IMG/VR virus record: IMGVR_UViG_3300031576_000009
Span: 1 to 64,000 of that record
DNA: 64,000 nt
Origin: a virus
Reading direction: 5' to 3' (one strand)
Shown piece by piece: positions 105 to 44,539 of this stretch. A model generated the notes under the pieces. It ran no database searches, had not been told where the DNA came from, and was given only the letters and a program-made list of their open reading frames with translations. How positions within the stretch are numbered: position 1 is the stretch's first letter; each line of letters starts with the position of its first letter. The translations under genes and the position numbers were made by a program.

Positions 105-119
105 CGTCGACCTCCAGAC

Positions 120-149
120 AAAAAAAAGAGGGCCGCTTTCGCGACCCTC
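120..149 (-). terminator. intrinsic terminator
   Basis: minus strand GAGGGTCGC-GAAA-GCGGCCCTC followed by T8, just downstream of ORF 163..402. Confidence 0.9.
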
Positions 150-162
150 CCTTTCCCGCGGT

Positions 163-402
163 CTAGAGCAGGTCCTTCGCGCGGGCGAACCGTATGCCGG
201 CGTATCCGACTCCGGCTGCGGCGACGAGGCCCAGGACCACCTTCTTGTGATCCCAGACGACCTGGGCGCCAGCCTTGACGACGCGGAGCGCCGCCCGTCC
301 CGTGCGCCTGAAGTACCCGATCTGGGATTCTCCGGGAGCCTGGGCACCGTTCTCGGTCTGATCCTTCTCGATCTCGACTTCGACTGTGCTGTGATTGTTC
401 AT
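163..402 (-). CDS. small membrane protein (79 aa)
   Basis: AAGGAG RBS; C-terminal hydrophobic segment VVLGLVAAAGVGYAGI; flanked by a promoter-like motif and a terminator. Confidence 0.75.
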   Translation of the reverse strand: MNNHSTVEVEIEKDQTENGAQAPGESQIGYFRRTGRAALRVVKAGAQVVWDHKKVVLGLVAAAGVGYAGIRFARAKDLL

Positions 403-614: not shown

Positions 615-643
615 AGTATCCCACTAGAAAGGTGGTTTGGACC
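615..643 (-). promoter_or_regulatory. putative promoter GGTCCA-N17-GATACT (TGG before the -10 hexamer)
   Basis: second copy of the 446..474 motif, immediately after the tail-tip gene stop. Confidence 0.6.
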
Positions 644-23402: not shown

Positions 23403-25243
23403 TTCCCTCCTTTGTCACCCGCGGAGTCGCGGTTCTTGCCCTTCGCTTTCTTCGCGGAAGGTCGCTTCTCGCCCTTTTTAGGAGGAGCTGGTGCTTCCTC
23501 CTCGTCCTCGTTCGGAGTCAGCGGCGATCGACTGATCTCCTCTGCGGTAGCCGGCGTTGCTGCCGGCTGTTGCGTTGGGTCGAAGTACATCGGCCCAAAG
23601 CCTGTGATCACGAGCTCCGGCATCACCTCGATTTCGGCGCTGATGAACTGATTCAGCAACGGCGATGCGTTACGAAGCATCTTGCGCACGAGTCGCTTCT
23701 CCACCTCGCGCTTGAAGGTCGGCGACCGAATGGTCTGCTTCGCCTTCAGCACGATGTCGAGCTCATCCGCAAAAGACTCCACGCTGAAGTCATCCGGGTA
23801 GTCGACGGTGCCCTGCCACTCGATGCCAAGCCACGCATGCCAGATACGGTGAATCTGGTTCTCGGCCATCTCGATCTCGTCCGCATGCTCGGCCAAGGTT
23901 CGGTTCGTCTCGTTGAACTCGAATGCCTGGGCGATACCGGACGGGACCTTCTGCGGCTGTACCAGACCGAGACCGCCCCCGAGCTTCGCGAGGCGATACA
24001 CCTCGTCCCGCGCCCGATCGATCATGGAGGCGATGAACGCACCCGGATCGGTCGACGGGGCCAGGAAGAACGGAGCGGTCGTGCCTTCCCACTCCAGCAC
24101 GTTGTCGCTCCCGATCGTGACTTCCTGCTTCTGCTCACGATCACGCTGCATGCAGAGGATGTTCAGCGTCTTCTGGTAGACCTCTTCATCGACCAAGCTC
24201 GACCAGTTGAGGATCGCGATGTTGATCCGGCAGATGTCCGCGATGAGGGAGACGCCGAACGACGGGTACTGACTGTGCCGCTTGTTGAAGAGCGTCACGA
24301 CCGGCACGCGTCCACACGGGTGCGCGCCGCGACCGATCTCCTGTGCCTGCCCGTTCTCCACCTGATGAATGAACCACGCATCGCGTGTCCAGGTGCGATA
24401 GATACCGTCGACCCGTCCCATCGGCCGCTCAGGACCGACGTACCGACCAGGAGTCTGCCGTCCTGACGGACCGAAGCTGCCGACAAACGCCGAGGCGCCG
24501 TAGCGGGCGATCGGCGCTCCACCACGCGGCGAGAACGGATCATTCTTCTCGGGAAGCGGCTCGCGGAACCGGCACCACAGAAACTCGCCGTTCTCGTCCA
24601 CGCCCCAGTCCGGCATCTCGGACGGGAAGTAGGTGGTCAAGTACGGACGCTGTCCGTACTTCAGCCGATCGGCCTCGCTACGAATCGTCGCGCCCTCGGG
24701 CAGCCGGGGCATGTCGACGACGATGTACACGTGCCCGAATGTGAACGCGTAGCGTGCCGCATCGGCCATGTACCGATCGATCGAGTTCCCCTTTCGATCG
24801 ACGTTGCGCAGCCAGTTCGCCCATTCGCTGGCCTCGGGCGATTCCGGCATGTCGCCGAGTTCACTCAAGCTCCCGAGCCCGAGGTTTTCGAGCACGTCGC
24901 CTTCGTACGACGGTGTCCGCAGCAGCTCTTCCGGTGTCTCCTTCCGCACCACCGGCTTCGCGAAGATGTAGTGCGTGTAGAGATCGACGACTGGCTGGCA
25001 GTAATTCAGGTAGTAGAGCCGCAGCCGACGCATGTCGATCGACTTCTGGCTCTCGCGGAGATGCTGGAACAGGTACCGCTCCAGGTGCTCACCCTCGTAG
25101 CAGTCGATGAAGCGGGTCCAGCGCGGCAGGAACTCCTGGTAGCGCGGGTGCGAGTCCGTCAACGCCCGCAGCATCACCTCGCCCCCCGGAGGGCTGATCA
25201 CGCCTTGCTGTTGCTGGCGGCGGAGTTGGCGAATGACGGCCAT
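23399..25243 (-). CDS. portal protein (DUF4055/SPP1-like)
   Basis: YLNYCQPVVD, NVDRKGNSID, GHVYIVVDMP, RPYL, GRVPVV, SGIA, IDYP-like VDYPDDF; start by TGATG overlap. Confidence 0.9.
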   Translation of the reverse strand: MAVIRQLRRQQQQGVISPPGGEVMLRALTDSHPRYQEFLPRWTRFIDCYEGEHLERYLFQHLRESQKSIDMRRLRLYYLNYCQPVVDLYTHYIFAKPVVRKETPEELLRTPSYEGDVLENLGLGSLSELGDMPESPEASEWANWLRNVDRKGNSIDRYMADAARYAFTFGHVYIVVDMPRLPEGATIRSEADRLKYGQRPYLTTYFPSEMPDWGVDENGEFLWCRFREPLPEKNDPFSPRGGAPIARYGASAFVGSFGPSGRQTPGRYVGPERPMGRVDGIYRTWTRDAWFIHQVENGQAQEIGRGAHPCGRVPVVTLFNKRHSQYPSFGVSLIADICRINIAILNWSSLVDEEVYQKTLNILCMQRDREQKQEVTIGSDNVLEWEGTTAPFFLAPSTDPGAFIASMIDRARDEVYRLAKLGGGLGLVQPQKVPSGIAQAFEFNETNRTLAEHADEIEMAENQIHRIWHAWLGIEWQGTVDYPDDFSVESFADELDIVLKAKQTIRSPTFKREVEKRLVRKMLRNASPLLNQFISAEIEVMPELVITGFGPMYFDPTQQPAATPATAEEISRSPLTPNEDEEEAPAPPKKGEKRPSAKKAKGKNRDSAGDKGGK

Positions 25244-25488
25244 CAACGAATGAGCGCGTGTTCGTGCCGCATCAGATTGCAGGGACCACAGCGCCAGTGC
25301 CGGATGAGCCCGCGACGATTCGAGTGCACGACCTCCGAGTGCAGGACCATCGGGCCACCACACTGATCGCAGGTCTGCACAGCCACGGTGACCGGCTCGT
25401 GCTTCTCCTCGACCTGTCCAGGGAATGGCATCGCAGCGATCTCTGCGAGTGCTGCACAGAGATTGTCCAGGCCCTCAGTGGCTTGCAT
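25243..25488 (-). CDS. small Zn-ribbon protein
   Basis: CDQC...CGPC; overlaps both neighbours. Confidence 0.6.
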   Translation of the reverse strand: MQATEGLDNLCAALAEIAAMPFPGQVEEKHEPVTVAVQTCDQCGGPMVLHSEVVHSNRRGLIRHWRCGPCNLMRHEHALIR

Positions 25489-27869
25489 CAGTACAAACTC
25501 TCCATGCGTCGCGTGCGGACGGACGCGGCTCGCGTGCCGTAGCTGTACACGGCGTAGCGCAGGGCGTCGCTTGCGTGGTCGTTCTGCTTCACGATGACAT
25601 CCCGATTCGCGGTGCCGTCCCGTTCTACCTTGTGGCAGTACAAAGCACCGAGCTCTGCACGCAGTTTAGAACACCACTTGAAGATTCTCAATAGCGGCAG
25701 TTGCGTGGTCGGCTGCCGGCGGAACATGGCCTTCACCCGGTTGATTCCAGCGTAGACATCGTTGTTCGCTGGAATGAGGGATGGCCCGTTGTACCGACGC
25801 AAGTACTTCTGGAGATCGATGATCGCCTGCTTGCCGCTCGGGTCCGGGAACACCCACTCTTTCGAGCCGAAATCCGGGCTTGTACCGATCTGATCGGCGT
25901 GTCCTTCGAGTGGCCGGTCCTGATCACAGTAGTACTCGTGGTAGACGTACCAGGTCCCGCTGTGTGGATCGATGGCGCACTTCAGGTAGACGAAGTGCGA
26001 GCCGAAATCGATACCGGAGACGCGGGTCCAGTCGGCTGGGATTGGGAACGGATCACAGAGCCAAGGCTCCTCATCACGGAAGTGATCCCCGTACACGAGG
26101 ATCGCGCCGGAGGGGCGCAGATTCCGCCACTGCGTGTCCCAGGTATCCTTGTCGAGGAGCTGGACCTTCTTGACGAAGTCGTCGATCTTGTACCACCCGT
26201 CGCAGCTGTGGGCGATGCCGCCGCACATCTTCTCTTTGCGGCCATCCGGCATCAGCATCTCGTACGCCGGGCAGTCGCCGTACGTCTTGTCGCCCTGACA
26301 CTGACGCGTGCACTTCTCTAGCACCTCGAAGATGCACCACGAGTGGACCTTGATCTTCTTGTTGGCCGCCTCGTCGAGGAGCCGCTGCATCGTCCCCTTC
26401 TGGAACTTCCGGGTACTGGTCAGCGTGTCCTGGGCCTTCCATCCACCCTTCTCCATGGACATCTGCAAACCTTCTTGCAGCACGACCCACGGCATGAGCT
26501 CGATCTCGTCGCAGTTATGGACGAGGACGCCTTCTACGATGAAGCAGCGAACTCCGGGAACAGTCAGATCGTAAACAGGGCCGGTGGGTCCGCGATCAAC
26601 TGCAACAACCTCCACCACAGGTGCATGTGTTCGGTCCGTGCGTAGATCACGCGAAATCCCGTGGCTTCGAGCTCGATCTTCTTGCGTGCATCGCGCTCGA
26701 TCGATCGAGGCAAGTCGTGCCAGTACTGCCCGTGCACTTCGATCACTACGTTCCTGGTCAGGAGCACAAAATCGAGAATCCACTGCCTCCACACCACCTG
26801 ATGCTGAAAGGTCAAACCCCACAACCGAAGCAGCTCGATCATGCGATGCTCGGCTGATGAAACGAACCGTTTCGATCCTCGCCAACGCGCGGCGACCCGC
26901 TTCTCGTTCATCACCAGATGCGTACACTTCCGACAATGTTTCGTGTAACGCGTCGAGAGTGGTTTTCCACAACCTGGACACGGTTGCGGACGCCACCGAC
27001 TCGCTGCCTTCTCCAGCTTCCAACATTCGCGGCACAGATGTAGCCGCGTTGGTTGATGGCCATGAAGTTGCCGTTCGCACTTCGTACAGAAGTGAATCGC
27101 GAGCCGACGAACAGGGCCACGCCGTCCCAAGTTTGGTGCCAGCTTTGCAACGATCAGCGCGCAGCCACACTCCCTCGGCAGTGAGGAGACCGTGGTCTGG
27201 AGTACAGATGAGTGTTCGTCCGTTCGAGAGGTGGAGACGGATTGTCGCTTCAATTCCGGTTTGGCGAACTTCCGTGACATATCCGGTCGAAACGCGTTCG
27301 CCGGGGCGGATGAACTTGATCGCTTTGGTCGTGCCATCCGCCATCAATACACCACACTCCTCGAAAATGCAACGGAACTTGTTCGGGTGTGGTGAATTCA
27401 TACCATGATAGGTCCCCGCGATGATCTTCACCTTCGAGCCGTTCCAGAATTGGGTCTCCTTCATCAGCGGGCCACGCATGACCTGCTGGAAGAGGAGTCC
27501 TTCGTCGGTGAGGAATCGCATGAAGTACTCGTACCCACGATTCGCCTGCTCCATGATGGCGCCCGCAGAGCAGACTTCGACGCCTGGCTTGAAGAGCGCA
27601 TCGAGGATGTTGAGGATCGCGACCAGGAGCGTCTTGCCCCCACCGCGATTGGCGAATCCGATCGAGGTCCTGACCCGCTCGAAGAACTGATCAGAGAGGA
27701 AGTCCATCGGAGAGCAGTGCTGGGGGCATATCTTCTGTCGGGGCACACGGAAGCCGAAAAACTCCCAGACGAAGTCCCAGAGTTCGTCCTCCGTCCGCAG
27801 TCCGCGTTCGAGATGGTACTGGAACAGACTGCGACGGAGAACGTCCTTCGATGGAGCAGCGATTCCCAC
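25488..27869 (-). CDS. terL: terminase large subunit, intein-containing
   Basis: Walker A ANRGGGKT; Walker B KFR|CDEIE split by the intein; nuclease GIDFG...DPSG...NDHASDALRY. Confidence 0.95.
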   Translation of the reverse strand: MGIAAPSKDVLRRSLFQYHLERGLRTEDELWDFVWEFFGFRVPRQKICPQHCSPMDFLSDQFFERVRTSIGFANRGGGKTLLVAILNILDALFKPGVEVCSAGAIMEQANRGYEYFMRFLTDEGLLFQQVMRGPLMKETQFWNGSKVKIIAGTYHGMNSPHPNKFRCIFEECGVLMADGTTKAIKFIRPGERVSTGYVTEVRQTGIEATIRLHLSNGRTLICTPDHGLLTAEGVWLRADRCKAGTKLGTAWPCSSARDSLLYEVRTATSWPSTNAATSVPRMLEAGEGSESVASATVSRLWKTTLDALHETLSEVYASGDEREAGRRALARIETVRFISRASHDRAASVVGFDLSASGGVEAVDSRFCAPDQERSDRSARAVLARLASIDRARCTQEDRARSHGISRDLRTDRTHAPVVEVVAVDRGPTGPVYDLTVPGVRCFIVEGVLVHNCDEIELMPWVVLQEGLQMSMEKGGWKAQDTLTSTRKFQKGTMQRLLDEAANKKIKVHSWCIFEVLEKCTRQCQGDKTYGDCPAYEMLMPDGRKEKMCGGIAHSCDGWYKIDDFVKKVQLLDKDTWDTQWRNLRPSGAILVYGDHFRDEEPWLCDPFPIPADWTRVSGIDFGSHFVYLKCAIDPHSGTWYVYHEYYCDQDRPLEGHADQIGTSPDFGSKEWVFPDPSGKQAIIDLQKYLRRYNGPSLIPANNDVYAGINRVKAMFRRQPTTQLPLLRIFKWCSKLRAELGALYCHKVERDGTANRDVIVKQNDHASDALRYAVYSYGTRAASVRTRRMESLY
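26514..27371 (-). mobile_element. intein (286 aa) inserted in TerL Walker B
   Basis: C1 (CIFEECGVLMADG), block B ICTPDH, block F VYDLTV, block G VLVHN|C. Confidence 0.93.
26564..27337 (-). CDS. Zn-finger + Vsr/DUF559-type endonuclease nested in the +1 frame of the TerL intein (start uncertain)
   Basis: CTKC/CREC/CPGC/CRKC then SSAE...QVV...ILDF...VIEVHGQYWH...ERDARK...LEATGFRVI. Confidence 0.85.
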   Translation of the reverse strand: MARPKRSSSSAPANAFRPDMSRKFAKPELKRQSVSTSRTDEHSSVLQTTVSSLPRECGCALIVAKLAPNLGRRGPVRRLAIHFCTKCERQLHGHQPTRLHLCRECWKLEKAASRWRPQPCPGCGKPLSTRYTKHCRKCTHLVMNEKRVAARWRGSKRFVSSAEHRMIELLRLWGLTFQHQVVWRQWILDFVLLTRNVVIEVHGQYWHDLPRSIERDARKKIELEATGFRVIYARTEHMHLWWRLLQLIADPPALFTI

Positions 27870-32890: not shown

Positions 32891-33216
32891 CACTCTGCTC
32901 CCAGTTGCACCGGCCATCGTGGGCGGAACGTTCCTTCCGGCTCCGACACGTCACGAATGTTGCCGGCGATGAACGAATGAATCTGTCCCGCGCCGTGCAG
33001 CGTATCGCTCGCGTACACCATGAGTCGCCCGGAGGTCCGGTGCGGTTTGATCTCATACGGTCTGATCTCCCGTTCGACAACACTCCCGTCCTTCTTCCGG
33101 TACTCGATCGTGACCCGCTGCGGCGGCTCCATCCCACCCGCATGCTCGATCGCGTCGAGCTCATGCCGCTGCCGCACGCGAACAAAGGCGGAGACGAGGC
33201 GCTTCGAGAAGGTCAG
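32890..33216 (-). CDS. stand-alone WYL-domain protein (start uncertain: CTG 33216 or GTG 33177)
   Basis: VTIEYRKKDGSVVEREIRPYEI...VYA.D......HSFIAGNI. Confidence 0.75.
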   Translation of the reverse strand: MTFSKRLVSAFVRVRQRHELDAIEHAGGMEPPQRVTIEYRKKDGSVVEREIRPYEIKPHRTSGRLMVYASDTLHGAGQIHSFIAGNIRDVSEPEGTFRPRWPVQLGAE

Positions 33217-34394
33217 AGCTTCCTCCCGTACAGGCGATAGAACTCCTCGACGGCTGCCGTCTCAGGATGGTTCGCACGGCGCAAGCGCCGGATGAGGGAC
33301 GTAGGGTTTGAGGCTGCCCTGCCGTAACGTGTGAGTGGAACGTTCATACCACCAAACGACCACGGGGATTCGGTCGCCCGGCGATAGACCGTCTTCCGCT
33401 CTCCGAGATCGATCTCCCTGTAGTTGACACGCTTGATCCGCGACAGGATTGCCGCCGGCTTCGACGCCTTGCTGATTGCCACCTTAGTGGTCGTCGCTCG
33501 CTGCACACTGCGCGACGGCAAGGCGATGCGTTCGCGGGGAATGGTACTTGTACGTTGAAGCTCACGCAGAACAGTCCGGTGTCGTTCCGTAATACTCGGA
33601 GCTGACGAGATGGTGCGAAGATGCTGTACTGTATCAACTAGCCGAGCAGGAACACGATAATACATGCGTCCCTCTTTCTCAAACCGTGGTAGCCCACGGC
33701 GCACACCGGACAGCATCTGACCCACGGCGCGGCGCTCTCGCTCGATGATCGCCGGCAGTCCTCGCCCCTTGAAAACGATCGAGGGATTGGTCGTGATCTG
33801 CTTCGGTATTCCCCGCCGTCCCTCCAGTGCACGGCTGCCCAGCAGGGCGATCGGACCGCCCGCCACGTAGCCAAGCATCCCATGCACGCGCGTGAGCGCG
33901 GCCATGTTGGGCACCATGTAGAGCGAGCGACCACCGGGCCACATATCACCGGGGTAATCGGTACCAAGCCGGCGAGTTACTGCACGGCCGACCCGCTTGA
34001 CCAACTCGTTCGTCTGCCCTGAGAGCGCGCCCTGCTGCAGCGCGGTCCGCTTGCGTCCGAGCCAGCCACGGTAGGCCTGCTTCGCAAGCTCCTTTCCTTC
34101 ATCCGTCGTGCGGCGGATGCGCTTATCGAGGAAGAGGTGGAAGTCACCGACGAACTCGGTGAGCGGGCGCTTCACGTTGACGAAGCGGTTGACGAGTGAG
34201 CTGACCCGTACGCCCTTGACCGGACCACCGATTAGCATCCGCGCCAGGGACATCGATCCCGCTCGGCGCGCTCCCGCTCGCGCAAGGACGGCGCTGGAGT
34301 ATGCAGACTTCGCCCAGATCGCTCGCCACTGCGCCGCCGTCAGGCGGCGGTGCCGCGAAAGCATACGCTGGGTCCGTGAGAGTACCGCCATCAT
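33213..34394 (-). CDS. Arg-rich protein, motif family (QWRAIWAK)
   Basis: 393 aa, very basic; motif near the N-terminus; coupled overlaps. Confidence 0.75.
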   Translation of the reverse strand: MMAVLSRTQRMLSRHRRLTAAQWRAIWAKSAYSSAVLARAGARRAGSMSLARMLIGGPVKGVRVSSLVNRFVNVKRPLTEFVGDFHLFLDKRIRRTTDEGKELAKQAYRGWLGRKRTALQQGALSGQTNELVKRVGRAVTRRLGTDYPGDMWPGGRSLYMVPNMAALTRVHGMLGYVAGGPIALLGSRALEGRRGIPKQITTNPSIVFKGRGLPAIIERERRAVGQMLSGVRRGLPRFEKEGRMYYRVPARLVDTVQHLRTISSAPSITERHRTVLRELQRTSTIPRERIALPSRSVQRATTTKVAISKASKPAAILSRIKRVNYREIDLGERKTVYRRATESPWSFGGMNVPLTRYGRAASNPTSLIRRLRRANHPETAAVEEFYRLYGRKL

Positions 34395-35131
34395 AGCGAC
34401 GACTTCCGGTAGTTCCTCCGCGCCACCTGAAAGGTGCGCGCGAGCTCCAGGCGCCGAGACCGAATGCGGTTCACAACCGCCCGCTTTAGTGCCCGACGGG
34501 CACGATCATCAATCGTGATCCGACTGATCGCACTCTCCATTGGCGGCACTACCCCACGCCATTGTCCTGCTGCCCGCCGTACGGAGTCGGCCGAGATGCG
34601 AAAGTGCCGCATCACTTCCGCCTGTGTGTCGCTCAGCGGGCTACCGAACGCCGCACTGCGGATCGCCTTCGCGATCGGGCGCGAGGCCTTGTTGATGGCT
34701 GTCTTTCCGAACTGATAGGCGGCCTTCTGCGCATCGTCGGCCATCGATTCGAGTGGACGCTCGACATCGAGTGGCGAGGCGCGCTTGTGGAGCTTCCACC
34801 ACGGGGCAGTCGGATCGCCGGGGATCGCCTCCTTGGCGAACTTCCGACGAAGCACGTCGTGGAGAAGCTTCTTCAGCTTCCCAACGAGCACATCCTGTGT
34901 CCGCCAAGGCTCATTCGCCTCGAAGTGCTGGGTGAAGCCGACGACACGCTTCCCACCTTCGAAGTTCGGACGGACCGCTTCACCCAGACCGCTGGAGATA
35001 CCGGTGAACTTCTCCTTCGCCACGCCAACGATCGCGGCGACACGACCGTAGCGCGCGACACGCTGCGCAGCCTTGGCGAAGATAGCCCGCCACTGCTGAC
35101 GCGTGATCAGATGTCGGGCAGCGCTGAGCAT
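34391..35131 (-). CDS. Arg-rich protein, motif family (QQWRAIFAK)
   Basis: 246 aa; N-terminal motif. Confidence 0.75.
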   Translation of the reverse strand: MLSAARHLITRQQWRAIFAKAAQRVARYGRVAAIVGVAKEKFTGISSGLGEAVRPNFEGGKRVVGFTQHFEANEPWRTQDVLVGKLKKLLHDVLRRKFAKEAIPGDPTAPWWKLHKRASPLDVERPLESMADDAQKAAYQFGKTAINKASRPIAKAIRSAAFGSPLSDTQAEVMRHFRISADSVRRAAGQWRGVVPPMESAISRITIDDRARRALKRAVVNRIRSRRLELARTFQVARRNYRKSSL

Positions 35132-35134
35132 CGA

Positions 35135-35836
35135 TCAGTCGACGCGCTCCCGCGCCCGTGTAGCCCGCTGCCGTTCGAGCTCGCGAGCGATCCGCCGGTA
35201 CTCACTCTTATAGTGCGCGAGCTGCATCCCGCCCTCGTTCTCCATCGTCTTCAGGAGGTTGGTCATGTGCTCGGCCATGATCGCCTGCCCGAGCGGCGAA
35301 TTTTCCTGGCCGATGCGGCGGAGATTGTCGCGGAGCGACTTCACCTCGCTCAGGATGTGCTCGCGTTCGAAGCCGCGGCGGAGCTTGCTCCGCCGCTCGA
35401 TCGGATTCGTGAGCAGGCCCATGCGAGGCTCACCGCCCGTGATAATGGTCTGGATCGCCCCGAGGGGACGACGCAGACGCTTCCGCAGCGCCTCTTCGCG
35501 GGCAACGCTGCGCTCTGCGAGATGGCGCTCGGCCTCCCGTGCGAGATAGTCGAGCCCCCAGGAGATTGGGAGCTCAGTGACCTTCGCGGCCGTCGAGGCG
35601 ATCCGGGTCGCAACATCCGACACGTCCGCTGCCGCCACGCGCGCTTTGGCCTTCTCCTTCTGCATGGCGGCGTACCGCTTCGCACCACCAGGCGCTCCCA
35701 AGATGTACTTGCCGCCTCTGGCTGCGGTGCGACCGACGGCCGCGGCGCTCACACGAATCGGCACGGCGATACGACGCCCGCCGTGCCGAATGGTTCGCCA
35801 GATGACTCCCTCTCGCTTGGTCGACTCGTCTGCCAC
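35135..35836 (-). CDS. Arg-rich protein with N-terminal WRTIRHGGRRIAVPI motif
   Basis: AGGAG RBS + GTG; 233 aa. Confidence 0.7.
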   Translation of the reverse strand: MADESTKREGVIWRTIRHGGRRIAVPIRVSAAAVGRTAARGGKYILGAPGGAKRYAAMQKEKAKARVAAADVSDVATRIASTAAKVTELPISWGLDYLAREAERHLAERSVAREEALRKRLRRPLGAIQTIITGGEPRMGLLTNPIERRSKLRRGFEREHILSEVKSLRDNLRRIGQENSPLGQAIMAEHMTNLLKTMENEGGMQLAHYKSEYRRIARELERQRATRARERVD

Positions 35837-35845
35837 AGTAGACTC

Positions 35846-36535
35846 CTAATAGTCGTGCTGCCGCTGGATCACTCCGGCGACGCGCGGATCGTACGTGGGG
35901 CGATGTGGACGGCTGACGACCACCGGCGCCGAGTACTGTTCGATGCCGCGCTGCAGCTGCGTCCGATGGCGTACCTTCGAGCGCGCACGCGTGTAGAGCC
36001 TGTAGCCGATGTGTCCGGCACCGATGACCGGCAGTGCGGTTGCGGCGAATCCGGCTGCTCCGCGCACGCGGCGCAGGTATGTGAACGCGGACTGCATCGC
36101 TTCGCGCCCTCCTCCAGGAGCAATGAACGCCCGGTGGATGGAGGCCTTCCCCTGCCACGCCCGCTTCGCGGCCAGCATGGCGGCATGTGTTGCCGTGTTC
36201 GCAGTGTCGCCTACACGAGCGGCGCCAACGGCTTCGTAGAGCGATCGCGCGATCCGCGGAGCGCGCATGGTCGCGACATACGTCTTGCGCAGAACCTGCG
36301 TCCGTCCCCGGAACGTTCGGGACAGCCGATGCGCCCCATAGGCAGCGAGCCCGTATCGCGCCGCGATGGGCACTTCCGGATAGTCCCGGTCCGGGTTGGC
36401 GGCGATGAGCCCGACTGTTCCGATGGCCACGCGCCGATGCACGGTCGGTGAGCGCACGAAGCCGCCGAACTTCTCCCGTGCCAGCCGGAGTGCGATCGCA
36501 ACCGCAGCTCTTTGTTGTTGGTTCACGAATCGCAT
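35846..36535 (-). CDS. Arg/Ala-rich protein, motif family (QQQRAAVAI)
   Basis: GAGG RBS; hydrophobic Gly/Ala segments. Confidence 0.75.
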   Translation of the reverse strand: MRFVNQQQRAAVAIALRLAREKFGGFVRSPTVHRRVAIGTVGLIAANPDRDYPEVPIAARYGLAAYGAHRLSRTFRGRTQVLRKTYVATMRAPRIARSLYEAVGAARVGDTANTATHAAMLAAKRAWQGKASIHRAFIAPGGGREAMQSAFTYLRRVRGAAGFAATALPVIGAGHIGYRLYTRARSKVRHRTQLQRGIEQYSAPVVVSRPHRPTYDPRVAGVIQRQHDY

Positions 36536-36538
36536 GCG

Positions 36539-36805
36539 TTACCTCACGTGCACCACTGGTGCGCGGACCTTCTGGAACGGCCGCTGGAAGCGGAACAGCC
36601 GCTCCCGAAGTATTCTACTCACTCGCCGGATTGTTAGCACGTCGCCCATCCGAGCTCCGAGACGGATGATAGGATGTCGCAGCACACGAGCAGCGACAAC
36701 CGCAGCCCCAAGGCTCGCGAGCTTGATGTTCCGACGGCGCCGGGCTCGTCGATTACGGATCGAGGCCATCACAGCCCGACGCTGTTCATCCGAAGTGAAG
36801 CGCAT
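36539..36805 (-). CDS. Arg-rich protein, motif family (DEQRRAVMAS)
   Basis: TGATG overlap; RNRRARRRR tract followed by a hydrophobic stretch. Confidence 0.7.
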   Translation of the reverse strand: MRFTSDEQRRAVMASIRNRRARRRRNIKLASLGAAVVAARVLRHPIIRLGARMGDVLTIRRVSRILRERLFRFQRPFQKVRAPVVHVR

Positions 36806-36975
36806 CACGGACCTGTACGGAACCGTTCTGGCATTCCCGATGCGAATGCCGTGCGATTAGCTCCTTTCATCACCGAGGGCCCACTGGTACGGAATAGCGG
36901 CTTCGCCTTCTTGGGACCCGATTGCTTGCGTCGGATCGTCTTGATCGAGGTCATGTACTTCCGTGGCGTGAACAT
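36805..36975 (-). CDS. 56-aa basic protein
   Basis: MFTPRKYMTSIKTIRRKQSGPKKAKP...; TGATG overlaps at both ends. Confidence 0.55.
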   Translation of the reverse strand: MFTPRKYMTSIKTIRRKQSGPKKAKPLFRTSGPSVMKGANRTAFASGMPERFRTGP

Positions 36976-36994
36976 CAGCGTCCCACCCTCGTCT

Positions 36995-37597
36995 TCATGC
37001 CGCTCTCCTCATCTTCGCGAACTCACTCACGGTGACGTACTGATTCAACCGCTTGATTGCCCGCTGTTGAATCTTCTTAATGCGCAACGGCTTCATACGC
37101 AACCGCTGGGCGACGGCCTTCGCGGGCAAATCCTGCAGCACTCGGAGTTGCAGTACTCGCCGTTCTTGGAGTGGGAGACGGCGCAGGAGCTGCTGCACGT
37201 GCACGCGGGACTCGACCGCACCGATCCCACCATCATCGGCGTGGCGTCCGCCGTGCACCTCGGGAGCAAACTCGACAGTCGACGGGAGCGGGCCAAGCGC
37301 CGCGAGCTTCTTGATGTGCCGCTCCGGGACGCGTACGGTCGTCTTCTGAATCTCGCGCAGGACCCGATTGCGGATCGCGATTACCGCCCCGGTCGAGAAG
37401 CGCGTGCTCCGGCGTGGGTTGTAGCGGCGGGCGAACTCCAAGAGCCCCACATTTCCGGCCGAGATCAGGTCTTCGCGCATGCCCTCGATACGTGGGCCGA
37501 ACTTGCGCATGTGCTGCCCCACGACCTTGTGGACGAGCCCCTGGTTATGCTCCGCCAGGCGGGCGAATATGGCCCGACGCTGCCGATCGGACATCAT
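36995..37597 (-). CDS. sigma70-family sigma factor (regions 2 and 4) with N-terminal QRRAIFARL motif; may start at GTG 37654
   Basis: HNQGLVHKVV...EDLISAGNVGLLEFARRYNP...RFST; region 4 LPLQERRVLQLR...AVAQRL...IQQRAIKRL. Confidence 0.88.
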   Translation of the reverse strand: MMSDRQRRAIFARLAEHNQGLVHKVVGQHMRKFGPRIEGMREDLISAGNVGLLEFARRYNPRRSTRFSTGAVIAIRNRVLREIQKTTVRVPERHIKKLAALGPLPSTVEFAPEVHGGRHADDGGIGAVESRVHVQQLLRRLPLQERRVLQLRVLQDLPAKAVAQRLRMKPLRIKKIQQRAIKRLNQYVTVSEFAKMRRAA

Positions 37598-37650
37598 CTT
37601 CCGACGACCGAGCCGGCGTGCTCCCATACGGCGAATGGCGGCCTGGCGTC

Positions 37651-37845
37651 TCACGTCTTGTCCTTCTTCTCCTCCGGCGGAGGGTGCTCCGTGAGCAAAC
37701 GCTCCAGCTGCGCGATCTGCGCCATCTCGATCCGCACGTTCATGCGATTGATCAGTTTGATCGCGATCGGCTTGCCGACGTGCTTCGCCACGCGATTGAA
37801 GTGGATCGCACGGAGTAGGTTTGATCGGTGTGGTTCGTTCATCAT
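37651..37845 (-). CDS. hypothetical protein (64 aa)
   Basis: GAGGTGG RBS, ATGA overlap. Confidence 0.55.
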   Translation of the reverse strand: MMNEPHRSNLLRAIHFNRVAKHVGKPIAIKLINRMNVRIEMAQIAQLERLLTEHPPPEEKKDKT

Positions 37846-38267
37846 GATCCACCACCTCGACGATCACGCTCGTGTCGCTCTCGATCTGCTTTCTGCAAAT
37901 TCTCCAGGCGATCCACGAAACGCTCCATGCCCAACTGGGTCCGATTGTGAAAGTCGCGATCCTGCTCTTCGTGCATCGTCTGTCGAGTTTCCTGCTTGAT
38001 CATCCGACCATTCAGTTTCGCCATCTCGGTCTGTACTTCACCAATCTTCATCTCGATGCCGGACAGATCGCGACGGTGATCGGCACGAAAGAGATCGAAC
38101 TCCTGCTTGTTCTCCTTGCGGAGCTCCAAGATCGATCCCTGCATCGCTGACTGGCTATGATCGATCTTCGAACGCAGCTGTCGCGCCATGCGCAGCATGC
38201 CGACGAAGCCCGTCGTCATGAAGAACAAGATCAGCCCACTTAGGACTTCGCCCCAGTTGATCGACAT
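37842..38267 (-). CDS. membrane-anchored coiled-coil protein
   Basis: N-terminal TM (WGEVLSGLILFFMTTGFVGML) followed by a coiled coil; GGAG RBS. Confidence 0.7.
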   Translation of the reverse strand: MSINWGEVLSGLILFFMTTGFVGMLRMARQLRSKIDHSQSAMQGSILELRKENKQEFDLFRADHRRDLSGIEMKIGEVQTEMAKLNGRMIKQETRQTMHEEQDRDFHNRTQLGMERFVDRLENLQKADRERHERDRRGGGS

Positions 38268-38548
38268 GCGTTCTCCATACGCTTGATCGCCCGAGCTAGA
38301 TGGCAGAACTGTGAACGATTGAACTGTCGGTTTTGCAGAATCTCCTGCCGGTTCCTCTGTGACTGTTTGGCGAGCTCCTCCGGCGGATAGGTAACCCGCA
38401 GTCCCGTAAGCGTCGCAACAATAATCAACACGGAGGCGCACGCGATGACGATGATGGTCCAGATCACCACCCGCTCGCCGGTCAGCGGGCGCCAACGTCG
38501 CGCTACCCCTGGCTCTGCCAACGATGCGCTTCCAGGCTCTTCTTCCAT
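38240..38548 (-). CDS. single-TM membrane protein (start uncertain)
   Basis: VVIWTIIVIACASVLIIVATLTGL then a helical domain. Confidence 0.55.
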   Translation of the reverse strand: MEEEPGSASLAEPGVARRWRPLTGERVVIWTIIVIACASVLIIVATLTGLRVTYPPEELAKQSQRNRQEILQNRQFNRSQFCHLARAIKRMENACRSTGAKS

Positions 38549-39336
38549 GCCTCGAATCCCGGTGGGAGGTCGATGTCGATCGGAAAGCGCTGGCCGCTGA
38601 TCTCCATGTGCCAGCAGAACATCCGCGTATCGACGAGGAAGGGGAACCGCTTCGTGACGAGCGACTTCCATCGCGTCTTGGCCAATGCCTTCGACTCGAT
38701 GACTCTGGTACAGAAGTTCAGGTCCTCGGTGCCGACCTGCCGTGCCCACATTCCCGTCTCGGGATCACAGAACGTGGCCCGCGGCGTGATGAACACCTGA
38801 CGGACCTCGCTGCGATCGGACAGGCGAATCTTCGACGCCTTCTTCGCCATCGCTATCAGGAGCTCGCGATGAATCATGGTGAAGCCCATGCCCATTCCAT
38901 CGCACCACACCTGGTCACCGAGCTTGAAGTCCCGGAACGCCCCGTTGCCGCGCCCGCGGTAGATGAGCGGCTCCGCCGGGTAGCTCTTGGTGTAGTACAG
39001 ACCGGCGATGATCGGCGTGGGAGGCTTCCGCATGAACTCGTCCGCCCAGATGAACGTGTTCGGAGGACAGAGCACGTCGTGATCGAGGAAGAAGAGCCAC
39101 TCCCGTCCGTTCTGCAGGAAGGTACGCACCAGCAGATTGCGCGCCTCGGCGACGCTGTAGCCCAGCGTCGAGGAAGTCAGCTGGGCCGTGTGCGTCGACT
39201 CCCAGTTGGTCGGGATAATGATGCCCGAGTTGGCCAGATGCCACTCGTACCGAATGACGCCCGTCGTCGGGATGCAGAGATGCACCCGTGGCCGATGCGG
39301 CGTCTTGTTCACCTTCAGGTCGAGTACTTTTCCCAT
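38503..39336 (-). CDS. GT-A fold (GT2-like) glycosyltransferase
   Basis: VAEARN...WLFFLDHD...GMGFTMIHR...GTEDLNFC. Confidence 0.85.
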   Translation of the reverse strand: MGKVLDLKVNKTPHRPRVHLCIPTTGVIRYEWHLANSGIIIPTNWESTHTAQLTSSTLGYSVAEARNLLVRTFLQNGREWLFFLDHDVLCPPNTFIWADEFMRKPPTPIIAGLYYTKSYPAEPLIYRGRGNGAFRDFKLGDQVWCDGMGMGFTMIHRELLIAMAKKASKIRLSDRSEVRQVFITPRATFCDPETGMWARQVGTEDLNFCTRVIESKALAKTRWKSLVTKRFPFLVDTRMFCWHMEISGQRFPIDIDLPPGFEAWKKSLEAHRWQSQG

Positions 39337-39364
39337 CGGTACCTCTACAGACGGAAGCCACTCA

Positions 39365-39751
39365 TCAGTAACCTCGCCGCTGAATGCGCTGTGCGACCCG
39401 GCGTTGAATGTCCCGACCGCGCGCCCGTGCGATGAGGCCCACGCGCCGCGTCCGCGCCTGAGCAACGACCGTTCGCGCGCCGCGCGCTGCGCTGGACATA
39501 CCGAACTTGAGCCCGCTCGTGATCGCCTTCGAGATGCCGAGTCGTGACGCTGCTGCGCCGCCGAGCACTCCTGCGCCCAGAACCCCAGCTGCAAGGAGGC
39601 CGTATCCGGCCACCCTCCCGGCCCGGCCGAGATCACGATATGTTGCTCCACTCTTCGTCCGCTTCGTCCCACGGCCACTGCCGCTCTTACCCTCGTTCAG
39701 CCGAGCGAACATGGCAGCGCGCTGCTGCGGAGACATACGAGTAACGGGCAT
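39365..39751 (-). CDS. basic protein with Gly-zipper TM segment, motif family (QQRAAMFARL)
   Basis: AGGAG RBS; GYGLLAAGVLGAGVLGGAAA. Confidence 0.75.
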   Translation of the reverse strand: MPVTRMSPQQRAAMFARLNEGKSGSGRGTKRTKSGATYRDLGRAGRVAGYGLLAAGVLGAGVLGGAAASRLGISKAITSGLKFGMSSAARGARTVVAQARTRRVGLIARARGRDIQRRVAQRIQRRGY

Positions 39752-39753
39752 GA

Positions 39754-40341
39754 TCAAATCTCCTGTGATCCCTTCTGCGCGATATTGACCTTACGTTTCA
39801 CGCCGACCTTGAGGAGCTTCTTCAAGAGCTCCGGCTCCTTCACGACACGCATGATGACTTCCATGTTGCCGACCACGTTCCATTCCAGCCGCTCCAGGAA
39901 GAGCGGCGGTGGCTCGTAAATGCGGTACAGGATGTTCGGCTGACCGTTCTGTGGGCGTGGATCGAAGTACTGCCAGGTGGCCTCGTTGAACCCCGGTCGC
40001 GTGTGCGTCGGGTCCTGGTAGGCACCGAACGAGCCTGCGTACGGTACCGAGATCAGCACCTGACAGCCATGCTTCCCGACCCGGTAGATTTCGGCCATGA
40101 CCGCGAGGAAGTTCCGCGGATCGATGTGCTCCAGGATATGGCTGGCGAGGATCGTGATGCAGCTGTCATTCGGGATCGGCCACGGCATCTTCTCCAAATC
40201 GTGGATGAAGTCCGCTTCGGGGATCGGACGCTTGTCCATCCCAACGTAGCCCTGCTGCTTCGCCCGACCACAGCCGATGTCGAGCTGGATGCCGCCCTTC
40301 TCATCGAGCAGCTTCTGCAGTTCGTCGTGTGCGACGGCCAT
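39754..40341 (-). CDS. class I SAM-dependent methyltransferase (type 11-like)
   Basis: LDIGCG...HDLE..PWP...SHILEH...EIYRV...DPTH. Confidence 0.88.
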   Translation of the reverse strand: MAVAHDELQKLLDEKGGIQLDIGCGRAKQQGYVGMDKRPIPEADFIHDLEKMPWPIPNDSCITILASHILEHIDPRNFLAVMAEIYRVGKHGCQVLISVPYAGSFGAYQDPTHTRPGFNEATWQYFDPRPQNGQPNILYRIYEPPPLFLERLEWNVVGNMEVIMRVVKEPELLKKLLKVGVKRKVNIAQKGSQEI

Positions 40342-41067
40342 TCACGTACTCCTCTGTCGACGACGATCCCGAATCCGCTGCCAGAAGGACAGCGTCGGTG
40401 ACGCCGTGATGTGGTACAGTCTGCGAATCTGGTGCGCCTGGCGCGTGGCAGGCAACGCAGTCGACGCGAGCGTGCCGGCCGCGAAGAGGATCGCACCCTT
40501 CCCGGAAACCTTTGGCTGCTCCTCGATGAGCCGCGGCTGACTCCGATGGTGCTGGAGCTTGATGCCGGTGTACGCCGTACCGACAGCTGCCGCCGCGAGC
40601 GGGACGACATGCCCGAGCAGAAAGCCCATGCGGGTGCTGGTCAGATTATTGCGCGACCATATCCGCTTCGGCGTGTAGATCGGAATCGAGTGGACGAGCG
40701 CGCGTTCACCTAGAAAGCTGCTGACGCCCAGCAGGGCTTGCCCCAAGAGCGCCTTCTTCTTCGTCCGCACGGTCTCGGAGGCCGGCTTCCCCCGGAACTT
40801 CTGAGCAAAAATTGTGCCAATTACCGGTGCGGCGGCGTAGGCGGCCACATACGGACCCCATGCCTTGGGGAACTTCCGCAGGGGGACGTGGGAGACACTC
40901 TCACGGATCGCAAAACCACCCGCCAGGAGGCTCCCAGAGCCCACCAGAGCCATTTGCACGCCGGGGGATAGCTTCCCCCACCGACGCTTCACGACACGGG
41001 CTCCTCTGCGGACCTGACGCAGCCGAGCGAACATCGCCCGCCGCTGGTCGTCCGGGATGAGCCTCAC
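40342..41067 (-). CDS. basic multi-TM protein, motif family (DDQRRAMFARL)
   Basis: several hydrophobic segments; GTGA overlap. Confidence 0.75.
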   Translation of the reverse strand: MRLIPDDQRRAMFARLRQVRRGARVVKRRWGKLSPGVQMALVGSGSLLAGGFAIRESVSHVPLRKFPKAWGPYVAAYAAAPVIGTIFAQKFRGKPASETVRTKKKALLGQALLGVSSFLGERALVHSIPIYTPKRIWSRNNLTSTRMGFLLGHVVPLAAAAVGTAYTGIKLQHHRSQPRLIEEQPKVSGKGAILFAAGTLASTALPATRQAHQIRRLYHITASPTLSFWQRIRDRRRQRST

Positions 41068-41549
41068 AGGCGGAGCCTCGCCCGGAAGAGCCGCTGGACC
41101 CGGCCACTCGACCCGATGAGCCCTCCGATGAGCTGCGGCCCGACCTTCTCGATCTTCTGACGCTCTGTGCGGCGCCCGAGGATTGTCCGGCGGATGAGGT
41201 AATCCCCAAGCACGTAGGCCGGAATCTCGACCGCGGCCGTACGCAGGATGTTTCCCGCGAGTACGCGCCCACGTACGCGTGTGCGAAAGAGCTTCGTCCC
41301 GCGGCCCACGGCCCGCGCGGAGGCGCGCACGCCGAAGCGGCCGAAGAACTTGGTCACCGGGCGTGCAGCGCCGAGCCTGCTAGTCAGGTAGCCACCCACG
41401 GCGAAGGCCGGAATCGCGATCGCGGTCTCGGTCACGTACGGATGGCGCTGATAGAACGAACGAGCGATTGCCTGACCTCGTGCGATGGGTCGAGCTCCAC
41501 GGAGCCGAGCGAAGATTGCACGACGCTGTTGTTCGTTCTGGAAGGTCAT
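41064..41549 (-). CDS. basic membrane-type protein, motif family (EQQRRAIFARL)
   Basis: ATGA overlap at 41549. Confidence 0.75.
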   Translation of the reverse strand: MTFQNEQQRRAIFARLRGARPIARGQAIARSFYQRHPYVTETAIAIPAFAVGGYLTSRLGAARPVTKFFGRFGVRASARAVGRGTKLFRTRVRGRVLAGNILRTAAVEIPAYVLGDYLIRRTILGRRTERQKIEKVGPQLIGGLIGSSGRVQRLFRARLRL

Positions 41550-42085
41550 GTGAGAAGCTTCAGTACAGGTTGGGTCTTCGCCATCCACACACGCATATTT
41601 CGCATGCGGGCCGCAGGCGTGTAGGTTGGTGCGAAGGTCCGCTTCAGCACCGATCTCATTTTCGCACTCGCTGACCACATCTTTGGGCGAACGCTTCGCG
41701 TGACAACACGAACGACGTTCCGAATACCTCCCGGCCCGAGAGCAGCGATCGGGAGTGAGGCAAGTCCGCCGACAACAAAACCAGCACTCTGCTGCATCGT
41801 CGACTTCGTGCTCTTTTGCTTATCGACATTGAATCTATTCACGCCGCTGAGCGCAAGTGCCGTACCGGTAAGGAATCGCGACATCGACATCCTGGACAAC
41901 ACGACTGGAGCACCGCCGCGCCGCCGCCGAGCGGACATCATGGCCCGCGCGTTCCCACGCACGAGTATTCCCGTACCGGCTCCATACATCACCCCAGCAC
42001 TGAAGCCCTTGCCGAAGGGGGTTGTCCCACGCAGCCGGGCGAACATGGCGCGGCGCTGTCGGTCATCTCGTCGTATGGTTCTCAT
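41546..42085 (-). CDS. basic protein with hydrophobic segments, motif family (DRQRRAMFARL)
   Basis: ATGA overlap. Confidence 0.75.
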   Translation of the reverse strand: MRTIRRDDRQRRAMFARLRGTTPFGKGFSAGVMYGAGTGILVRGNARAMMSARRRRGGAPVVLSRMSMSRFLTGTALALSGVNRFNVDKQKSTKSTMQQSAGFVVGGLASLPIAALGPGGIRNVVRVVTRSVRPKMWSASAKMRSVLKRTFAPTYTPAARMRNMRVWMAKTQPVLKLLT

Positions 42086-43095: not shown

Positions 43096-43454
43096 CAGAT
43101 TCTCGGGAGGATGAAGATTTCGATGCGCGTGTCTCCATTGGGAAACGATGACTCCAGACCGGACGGATCGTTAGCGTAGAACACGGCGAGGTATTTGCCC
43201 GGATCGTCCGTGTTGGTGACCGCCCAGGCATAGACGAGTTGACCGCTGGTTCTCGGTAAGATGAAAGCGGCCGTCACCAGGGAGAGCGTCGACACCGTCT
43301 GGTCCTCTTTCCGCATGCTGAAGCGCGGATTCGTCCAGTCGGTGAAATTGAAGGGCAGCCCCGTGCTCTCCTTGATCACGGTCGCCACCAACACCGGGAG
43401 CCGATTGCCGGCGGTCAGAAAGGCCCGAGGAGTTCGTCCGCCGCTGATGGTCAT
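43095..43454 (-). CDS. BppU N-terminal-like beta-sandwich structural protein
   Basis: GNRLPVLVAT...PFNFT...GQLVYAW...DDPGKY.A.F...SFPN. Confidence 0.65.
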   Translation of the reverse strand: MTISGGRTPRAFLTAGNRLPVLVATVIKESTGLPFNFTDWTNPRFSMRKEDQTVSTLSLVTAAFILPRTSGQLVYAWAVTNTDDPGKYLAVFYANDPSGLESSFPNGDTRIEIFILPRI

Positions 43455-44539
43455 GCCGCGAGGATTTCCATCGGTTTGTCATGGTACATCACGCTCGGCA
43501 CGTCGTCGTACCAGATCACGTCCCCCAACACGTCTTGCCAGCTCACGTTCACGTGGACTTGGTCGTTCGGGATCGTACCGATCAGCATGGCAATTATATC
43601 AGCCAAACCGACGTTCTCAACCGCCTGGATGGTGAGGACCGGTACGAATATCTTCAGGTTGTTCAGCAGGTCCTGTACCGTCATCGTCTCGGCCTTGTTG
43701 ATCAGCAGCGGATTCAGGAAGAGCCGGGTGATCGCATCTTGTACCGAAACATTTTCCTGTAACCGGACGACGAGCGGGTTCACCAGGAGCTTGGTCACCA
43801 CATCGGTTGGCGTCACGCTCTCCTGCAGCGCGATGCGCAGGGGATCGATGAAGAGCTTCGTCACCACATCGGCGAAGCTGAGCGTGTCGCTGACCCGGAT
43901 CACGAGGCCGATCGAGATGATCAGGAAGTCGGCGACCGTGACCGACTCCGCTCGATTGATAATGAGTGGGTTGATGAGGACGCGGACGACCGCATCCTGG
44001 AACACGGGCGAATCGGAGACCGCGATCAGGAGCGGGCTCACGAAGAGCCTCGACACCACATCCGTCAGCGTCGCGGTATCGGAGACCCGAATGCGCAGCG
44101 GCTCGACGAAGAGCTTCAGGACCGCATCAGCGATCGCCGGAGTCTCATTCGCCCGCACGAGGAGCGGGTTGATGATCAGCTTGACGACGGCGTCCTGGAT
44201 ACCCTGGTTCTCGATCGCCTGGAGCAGGAGCGGGCTCTCGAAGATGCGCACCAGGACATCTGTGATCGTCGCGGTATCGTTCGAGCGAATGATGAGTGGG
44301 GTGATGACCTCCTTCACCAGCTGATCGGTGAGGGTGGGATTCTCCATGGCCTGGACGATCAACGGATTGATCACCACCTTCACCACCATGTCGCTCGTCG
44401 TGATGGTGTCGTTGGTGCTGATCCGCAGCGGCGAAGCGAAGAGCTTCACCAGCTGGTCCACAGCCGTCGCGTTCTCCGCGGCGTTGACTATCAACGCCGT
44501 GATGAGCTGCTGCGGAACGAAGAAGAGGAACCAGCTCAT
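43451..44539 (-). CDS. tandem-repeat protein (about 14 x 22-aa repeats), probable fibre/whisker
   Basis: PLx[IV]xxx[ED]xxxxxDx[VL]x[KR][LV][FI]xx repeated. Confidence 0.8.
   Translation of the reverse strand: MSWFLFFVPQQLITALIVNAAENATAVDQLVKLFASPLRISTNDTITTSDMVVKVVINPLIVQAMENPTLTDQLVKEVITPLIIRSNDTATITDVLVRIFESPLLLQAIENQGIQDAVVKLIINPLLVRANETPAIADAVLKLFVEPLRIRVSDTATLTDVVSRLFVSPLLIAVSDSPVFQDAVVRVLINPLIINRAESVTVADFLIISIGLVIRVSDTLSFADVVTKLFIDPLRIALQESVTPTDVVTKLLVNPLVVRLQENVSVQDAITRLFLNPLLINKAETMTVQDLLNNLKIFVPVLTIQAVENVGLADIIAMLIGTIPNDQVHVNVSWQDVLGDVIWYDDVPSVMYHDKPMEILAA

Follow-up and report, generated by a model that had tools for sequence, protein, structure and literature searches.

A sigma-70-family protein whose N-terminal tag recurs on head-module proteins, possibly packaged in the virion

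We analysed the first 64 kb (64,000 nucleotides, hereafter the window) of the 101,720-bp virus record IMGVR_UViG_3300031576_000009, in which the minus strand holds nearly all genes; all window features described below lie on that strand. Within a block that encodes very basic proteins (42085 to 33213) is a sigma-70-family gene at 36995..37654, with 219 codons counted from GTG 37654 and its stop codon at 36995-36997. Its product carries a short N-terminal peptide, SDRQRRAIFARL (37556..37591), which we call the tag, and which is a predicted helix (residues 3-16 of P0002, the public call of this gene). An Arg-rich leader of ~20 residues (37595..37654), which aligns with the leaders of its relatives P0003-P0008, precedes the tag. 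Next come sigma region 2 (Pfam Sigma70_r2, 37340..37558), including the region 2.3/2.4 string FSTGAVIAIR (37370..37399), and sigma region 4 (Pfam Sigma70_r4, 37046..37189), including the recognition-helix string MKPLRIKKI (37070-37096). Both strings, which the first-pass annotation of this stretch had quoted, can be read directly from the DNA. Immediately upstream, a 64-amino-acid open reading frame (ORF; 37651..37845) ends in a TGA stop that overlaps the sigma GTG as GTGA. No family match was found for this small ORF, and it is speculation on our part that its product could be a partner, helper or regulator of the sigma.

The sigma is not the only carrier of the tag. The peptide follows the pattern S-D-x-Q-R-(R/K)-A-(I/M)-F-A-(R/K)-L, which in the sigma appears as a short helix after the Arg-rich leader, and nine minus-strand ORFs between 33213 and 42085 contain (D/Q)-Q-R-R-A-(I/M)-F-A-R-L, or a weaker version of it, within their first 30 residues. 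All carriers in the window have isoelectric points (pI) of 11.5-12, 12-26% Arg and few acidic residues. Upstream of the sigma gene they are Arg-rich proteins encoded at 41546..42085 (DRQRRAMFARL, pI 12), 41064..41549 (EQQRRAIFARL), 40342..41067 (DDQRRAMFARL, with Gly/Ala-rich hydrophobic segments) and 39365..39751 (PQQRAAMFARL). Downstream of it are an 89-amino-acid protein with 26% Arg (36539..36808, DEQRRAVMASI), a protein with the weaker motif QQQRAAVAIAL (35846..36535), another with RQQWRAIFAK (34391..35131) and a 393-amino-acid protein in which AAQWRAIWAK follows a 20-residue leader (33213..34394). The Atlas model of the last protein is disordered, and an Atlas search with it gave no usable lead. 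When the regular expression [QE]-x-[RK]-A-x-x-A was applied near the N-terminus, it retrieved 8 minus-strand ORFs (34311-42058), the ninth being PQQRAAMFARL in the ORF that starts at 39751. The same expression matched once in ~500 kb of other high-GC phage loci, so the tag is far above chance here. Its copies differ at synonymous DNA sites, which places the conservation at the protein level and rules out a DNA-level repeat. We also rejected a Tat/Sec signal: the spacing misfits S/T-R-R-x-F-L-K, and no hydrophobic segment follows the tag in the sigma.

Judged by its sequence and its predicted fold, ORF 36995-37654 is a genuine sigma-70-family protein, for which core binding and promoter-specific initiation are predicted. 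Sigma70_r2 (PF04542) scores 32 bits against a cut-off of 24 (33.8 bits in a six-frame search) and Sigma70_r4 (PF04545) 28.5 bits against 24.1. PHROG 351, 'RNA polymerase sigma factor', matches at 1.6e-24, PHROG 1740 was also matched, and NCBIfam TIGR02937 reaches 78 bits (cut-off 42.9) over residues 11-187. The AF2 model (pLDDT 89.6) is all-helical and consists of sigma2, the first helix of region 3 as the only part of that region represented, a disordered linker (109-120) and sigma4. Its top Foldseek matches against the PDB are exclusively sigma factors (SigB, sigmaS, sigma32, SigA, WhiG and ECF SigH; E 4e-6 and weaker). The first-pass annotation had described a compact protein with regions 2 and 4 and a short region 3, and had named a non-sigma fold among the results that would speak against it; the profiles (Pfam, PHROG 351, TIGR02937) agree with that description, and the fold comparison returned sigma factors only. 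The comparison with FliA, SigF and ECF sigmas that it had proposed places the protein in the family at large. The clade profile matches structures of RpoD/SigA, RpoS, FliA, SigB and SigF (E 1e-28 to 1e-21), and the named subfamily models stay far under their cut-offs (FliA/WhiG TIGR02479, 53 against 189.6 bits; SigB/F/G TIGR02980, 55 against 234; the RpoS/RpoH set, 40 against 379). On these scores the protein is a member of no named cellular subfamily. It is the only sigma in the genome; in a tblastn search of 50,697 phage records, only other sigmas were matched, weakly and in region 2.

The start codon bears on how the tag is presented. Public gene calls begin at ATG 37594 (P0002, 199 amino acids), and ATG 37597 would give a form of 200 amino acids; neither ATG has a spaced ribosome-binding site. 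We favour GTG 37654, because of its GTGA overlap with the upstream stop, the AAGGA ~7 nt ahead of it and the leader, which aligns with the Arg-rich leaders of the relatives. With this start the tag lies near the N-terminus and not at it. The earlier statement that the protein begins with the tag is therefore right about the tag and wrong about the exact N-terminus, as the 20-residue leader precedes MSDRQRRAIFARL.

Two parts of the protein had been singled out as abnormal, and we compared them by column counts over the window sigma and its 86 nearest homologues (87 sequences) from 1.84 billion representatives. In FSTGAVIAIR, Gly69 occupies the position of Y430 of sigma-70, and Ile and Ala those of W433 and W434, so that Y425, Y430, W433 and W434 are replaced by Thr, Gly, Ile and Ala, respectively. 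The Y430 column is aromatic in 72 of the 87 sequences (Tyr 43, Phe 27, Trp 2; also Gly 6 and Leu 4), and Gly is confined to the closest clade (6/87). An aromatic residue at this position is typical of the family but does not define it. The W433 and W434 columns are variable throughout the homologues, and absence of this pair is, by this sampling, ordinary for alternative sigmas. The claim that canonical melting residues are lacking consequently holds for the unusual Gly but loses its force for the two tryptophans. Across the five closest members F66, T68, G69, A70, A73, I74 and the string TVRVPE are invariant, and conservation across the clade peaks in the DNA-contacting segment 2.3-3.0; the invariance indicates that the Gly is a selected feature and not decay. 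Since tagged relatives exist with Leu (P0006) or Tyr (P0011 and the sigma of metagenome contig L040) in this column, tag and Gly are independent traits. In phiEco32 gp36, a very divergent protein, W90 and Y83 are still stacked on the fork junction (PMC12276001). Compared with gp36, region 2.3 of the clade is genuinely atypical, and a helper may be needed. In region 4.2, Arg171 (equivalent to R586) is conserved, and the column of Pro169 most often holds Pro, while Lys168 and Leu170 are rare. The difference from SRERVRQI noted earlier is real, yet any alternative sigma departs from sigma-70 in this way; the residues point to a different -35 specificity and nothing more.

The tag is a lasting attribute of this sigma clade. 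It is present N-terminally in 9 of the 12 best sigma homologues (the L040 protein counted), standing ahead of region 2 in P0003, P0004, P0005, P0006, P0007, P0008, P0011 and the L040 sigma, and it has been kept through ~50% sequence divergence. Members of the tagged clade have a pI of 11.2-12.0, against a median of 9.4 for the other homologues and ~12 for the other tagged proteins. We read the genomic context of the tagged relatives in L040, where the order is a tagged protein, two untagged ORFs, the tagged sigma, an untagged ORF, a second tagged protein and TerL. The L040 TerL is 50-53% identical to that of the window and has no intein. From this gene order and similarity, L040 is a related phage with conserved synteny of a tagged sigma just upstream of TerL. 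Of the two untagged ORFs between the first tagged protein and the sigma of L040, one (1205-1672, plus strand) contains an Acb2/Tad1 hairpin domain, scoring 52.9 bits, from a family of anti-CBASS/anti-Thoeris sponges. Scans of IMG/VR with the sigma and with the clade alignment retrieved only distant sigmas without the tag, and the motif strings had no match in a literature search of 8.4 million papers. We found no earlier description of a sigma joined to a head-module peptide in this way, with clade-wide conservation and synteny with TerL.

The peptide also occurs outside this lineage, where it was found by a degenerate DNA pattern and two profile searches. It is present in 37 protein clusters, 13 of them with PF10123 (Mu-like protease) and 9 with PF00565 (staphylococcal nuclease), some carrying the names 'phage protease' or 'thermonuclease' of Kiritimatiellia. 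In prokaryote assemblies it was seen at 19 loci, 14 of which belong to Verrucomicrobiota, Lentisphaerae, Tepidisphaeraceae or the 'PVC group' (Planctomycetes-Verrucomicrobia-Chlamydiae). The tagged Mu-like prophages come from Verrucomicrobiota, Kiritimatiellia, Lentisphaerae and Planctomycetota (L049-L067, L006; P0152, P0156, P0160-P0195), and in them the tag heads a conserved staphylococcal-nuclease protein of ~750 amino acids encoded between the portal and capsid genes. The IMG/VR locus L006, for example, combines a Mu-type portal, a Mu-like protease with two tag copies in an extension, a tagged 710-amino-acid protein, and scaffold-like and capsid genes; the polyproteins P0152 and P0156 contain up to four copies. 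In these proteins the module opens with hydrophobic-x-Asn-(Ala/Arg/Ser/Gly), followed after 2-8 residues by the tag, (Pro)-Met-(Ser/Thr)-Asp-Glu-Gln-Arg-Lys-Ala-Met-Phe-Ala-(Arg/Lys/His)-(Met/Leu) with a nearly invariant Met, and then by poly-Gly. The x-Asn-Arg context also occurs without the tag in an Akkermansia phage protease/scaffold protein. The Asn context may mark cleavage sites, or the Met internal translation starts, and either would leave the tag at or near a new N-terminus. The pattern DEQRKAMFA had no match in IMG/VR. A similar string, QRRAMFASL, is internal to a conserved protein of ~185 amino acids (...NEFGGPFTDxQRRAMFASLR...) in unrelated low-GC phages (L002, L003 and L005 in IMG/VR, GC 42-47%). 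No gene besides the tag was detectably common to the window phage and the tagged prophages, a search for a receptor gene included. By its distribution, the tag is a portable peptide module. That the sigma carries what the first-pass annotation called a cargo motif is thus borne out, and extended by the retention of the motif across the clade and its presence on head-module proteins elsewhere.

Its placing of the gene among late genes agrees with the gene order around the tag array. In the direction of transcription, tail-fibre-like genes lie upstream of the basic-protein block, which also includes untagged accessory genes (glycosyltransferase-like and methyltransferase-like ORFs). A Cys-rich, secreted-looking protein and a CHAP-domain protein follow the block, and then TerL with an intein (25488-27869), the portal (23399-25363), a separate scaffold gene without the tag (22404-23402), a capsid protein of the SU10 family (21172-22308), head-tail adaptor and Neck1 genes, a glycosyl/methyl-transferase with an intein and a tape-measure-like protein of 2470 amino acids (5532-12944). 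The TerL intein was confirmed by the L040 homologue, which aligns to residues 9-166 and 454-604 of the window TerL, leaving ~287 residues as an insertion. A 1357-amino-acid ORF without a family match (643-4716) adjoins the tape-measure gene. As read from these genes the phage is a long-tailed siphovirus, and a tape measure of 2470 amino acids would imply an exceptionally long tail. We considered an SU10/phiEco32-like podovirus with a gp36-type sigma, as the capsid matches the SU10 family, but the 2470-amino-acid ORF matches tape-measure proteins; the idea was rejected because tape-measure, adaptor and Neck1 genes are present and the sigma has no similarity to phiEco32. No close cultured relative was found among the 50,697 phage records, and the host probably belongs to the PVC group. 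The genome has a 197-bp direct terminal repeat (window 1-197 and genome 101524-101720) with a terminator-like hairpin inside it, although in the public collection the record is entered as linear, 79% complete and free of end repeats. No phage RNA polymerase was detected in the genome, nor was a virion RNA polymerase found that would make a packaged sigma needless.

Host-type promoters are scarce in this genome. A near-consensus sigma-70-type promoter, TTGAGA-16 nt-TATAAT with an upstream TG (11/12), lies at 43593..43620 on the coding strand, inside the 3' end of ORF 43451-44539 and 1.5 kb upstream of the tag array. It is the sole site scoring at least 10/12 in the 101.7-kb genome, against ~5 in shuffles, and in the presumed early region (83-101.7 kb), where 4.3 sigma-70-consensus promoters were expected, none was found. 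A different element, GGTC[CT][AT]-17 nt-GTGGGATACT, is present in three copies, all on the minus strand: 446-474 and 615-643 in the window, both named in the first-pass annotation, and 92997-93025 (= L046 9997-10025) outside it, in the early region. Each copy precedes, on the coding strand, a short unit closed by a strong intrinsic terminator, which suggests three small transcription units, possibly small RNAs. As GTGGGATACT resembles a TG-extended -10 element, the primary sigma of the host may read these sites, and we do not assign them to the phage sigma.

How, then, might a tagged sigma serve this phage? The single most likely reading, to which we give a probability of roughly 40% on the strength of sequence and analogy, is that the sigma is packaged in the virion and delivered. 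The tag would address proteins to the procapsid interior, a role to which we are led because protease and scaffold work inside the procapsid, and yet the tag is also found on a nuclease and a sigma, whose activity is directed at nucleic acids of the cytoplasm. In the window phage, the sigma would be loaded into heads along with the other tagged proteins, leave the head with the DNA at infection and bind the host core RNA polymerase. It would then start transcription from phage promoters of non-host specificity, its region 4.2 and its non-aromatic region 2.3 being unlike those of sigma-70. The sigma probably retains promoter recognition.

Packaging and delivery would fit the position of the sigma gene in the structural block of two relatives, the basicity of the clade and the lack of both a detected phage RNA polymerase and early sigma-70-type promoters. 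A location in the structural block suits a virion component, as it would be an odd one for a sigma that must itself switch on that block. Moreover, the distribution of the tag resembles that of a capsid-targeting sequence (CTS) in two respects. A short N-terminal peptide is common to unrelated proteins of one phage (the nine ORFs), and, across phages and not within the window phage, it is attached to proteins of the prohead interior (the PF10123 protease/scaffold polyproteins). A further-reaching proposal is that this would be the first virion-delivered sigma, with a lineage of PVC phages loading the specificity subunit into the head by means of a portable N-terminal address peptide; in Mu-like phages infecting these hosts, the peptide would likewise mark pieces of scaffold/protease and nuclease cargo. 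Injected DNA would then be transcribed early without recourse to host sigma factors, from the first minute on, and the Gly-for-Tyr exchange in region 2.3 would mean that these promoters are opened or read in an unusual manner, perhaps together with a partner that is co-delivered or co-translated. We consider this proposal less likely than not, and somewhat less likely than packaging and delivery as such.

Several considerations weigh against a packaged and delivered sigma. We know of no precedent for one, and a literature search for such a precedent found none. Pieces of scaffold and protease do not normally stay in the head but are expelled or degraded, and the tag could accordingly mark transient residents of the procapsid instead of delivered cargo. 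Since the two types of tag-using phage share no other detectable gene, the tag might bind a host factor or DNA and not a head protein. The genome gave no match to the prohead-protease families PF10123 and PF04586, and the head genes none to a protease PHROG, other families being unsearched. The tag helix of the sigma may belong to the sigma2 fold and not be a free handle, because it is confidently modelled and lies, in the profile alignment, opposite the RpoD segment just ahead of region 2.1. A cognate promoter family was sought with exact k-mers, repeats, intergenic k-mer enrichment and two-block word pairs, and none was found; these searches returned only terminator T-runs, Shine-Dalgarno sequences and the GGTC element. 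Finally, with the promoter at 43593-43620 upstream of the block, host polymerase could make the sigma early.

An ordinary, non-packaged phage sigma is nearly as likely in our estimation. Such a sigma would be made during infection and redirect the host core to middle or late promoters, while the tag would have another role, such as holding the protein to a shared partner of host or phage origin, anchoring it on phage DNA or at assembly sites, or controlling its stability. As far as is known, phage sigmas all act in this manner (for phiEco32 gp36, PMC12276001). The only near-consensus host-type promoter of the genome would let the host holoenzyme transcribe the block early from 1.5 kb upstream on the same strand, and the match of the tag helix to native RpoD sequence before region 2.1 is as expected from a plain sigma. 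Nor is the block purely structural, given its glycosyltransferase- and methyltransferase-like ORFs and the Acb2/Tad1-type anti-defence domain in L040. What this explanation leaves aside is the peptide on head protease/scaffold polyproteins and on head-module nucleases of other phages, the position of the sigma beside TerL in two divergent relatives, and the basicity of the clade.

Rather unlikely, in our view, is that the tag is a handle for binding or condensing nucleic acid, the Arg-rich tagged proteins coating the phage DNA and ending up in the capsid as a by-product. The high pI, high Arg content and few acidic residues of every tagged protein in the window are what such coating proteins would have, the 393-amino-acid member is predicted to be disordered, and the two tag-using phage types share no head protein detectable by sequence. 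In the Mu-like polyproteins, however, the tags precede poly-Gly linkers and scaffold domains that are acidic or neutral, not Arg-rich sequence, and the core A-M-F-A with basic flanks and an acidic N-cap resembles a protein-binding amphipathic helix, although we only infer the latter. Most improbable of all is the melting-deficient decoy that the first-pass annotation had offered as its alternative, which would bind core through regions 2.1/2.2 and 4, fail to open promoters and shut off host transcription: the four replaced sigma-70 residues, and the aromatic pair W90 and Y83 that even divergent gp36 keeps at the fork junction (PMC12276001), speak for it, but a core-binding decoy would need neither the strongest conservation in 2.3-3.0 nor an invariant Gly in the five closest members, the family is not defined by residue loss, as Tyr or Leu stands in this column in some tagged relatives, absence of W433/W434 is normal among the 87 nearest homologues, and with no phage RNA polymerase detected, blocking the core would block the phage too.

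The anatomy of the locus is solid, the claim of an injected sigma is unproven, and the arguments from the melting residues and region 4.2 are in part ordinary. To our knowledge, very little phage biology has been worked out for Verrucomicrobiota, Planctomycetota and their relatives. If the tag is an address for the head interior, it would give a simple, testable rule by which packaged cargo could be predicted in the phages of these bacteria, as well as a short peptide usable for loading proteins into capsids. It would also point to a sigma clade that manages without the aromatic residue usual in region 2.3, with a bearing on how promoters are melted. Should the tag serve some other purpose, the sigmas would still form a well-defined new phage clade with a conserved N-terminal module, and a peptide common to unrelated phages of one host group would still need explaining.

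Among known systems, the closest functional analogy to the tag is the CTS of T4. This sequence is found on IPI-III and Alt, which are packaged and injected, Alt modifying the host RNA polymerase on entry, and it is removed by the gp21 prohead protease. Like the tag, it is a short N-terminal peptide common to otherwise unrelated, co-encoded proteins. In contrast to the T4 case, the tag is unrelated in sequence, no prohead protease was found in our search of this genome, and packaging is a proposal made from sequence. A second likeness is with protease-scaffold polyproteins of the Mu gpI/gpZ type and with 'polyvalent' head-delivered proteins, in that the tag is present in multiple copies in PF10123 polyproteins and N-terminally on the adjacent staphylococcal-nuclease proteins. 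The window phage differs from those Mu-like prophages in its separate, untagged scaffold and in having no PF10123 protease and no other gene in common with them. We know of no description of a delivered sigma subunit; known deliveries are whole RNA polymerases (N4, phiKZ-type) and polymerase-modifying enzymes (T4 Alt). According to published accounts, the virion RNA polymerases of N4 and of the phiKZ/AR9 type carry the activity for early transcription in the particle (PMC4496689, PMC5449584). Those are complete polymerases, whereas here only the specificity subunit would be delivered and the host core would still be needed.

As a sigma, the protein represents, on sequence grounds, a new clade of a known family. 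Like phiEco32 gp36 (with its partner gp79), T4 gp55, SPO1 gp28 and gp33/34, it is a small phage protein with sigma2- and sigma4-like domains, predicted to reprogram the host core; it matches PHROG 351/1740, and its phage has no detected polymerase of its own. It has no detectable sequence relationship to phiEco32 gp36, and while gp36 keeps the aromatic W90 and Y83 at the fork junction (PMC12276001), the matching sigma-70 positions of the window clade are taken by Gly, Ile and Ala. It also departs from the known phage sigmas, which are made after infection and have no common tag, in being tagged and encoded in the structural block. With the group 3/4 alternative sigmas it shares its profile scores (TIGR02937 best at 78 bits, then SigBFG at 55 and FliA_WhiG at 53), the lack of the W433/W434 pair and a fold matching SigB, sigmaS, WhiG and SigH. 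It stands apart from them in its extreme basicity, its Arg-rich leader and tag, the Gly in the Y430 column (6/87) and subfamily scores that remain under the cut-offs.

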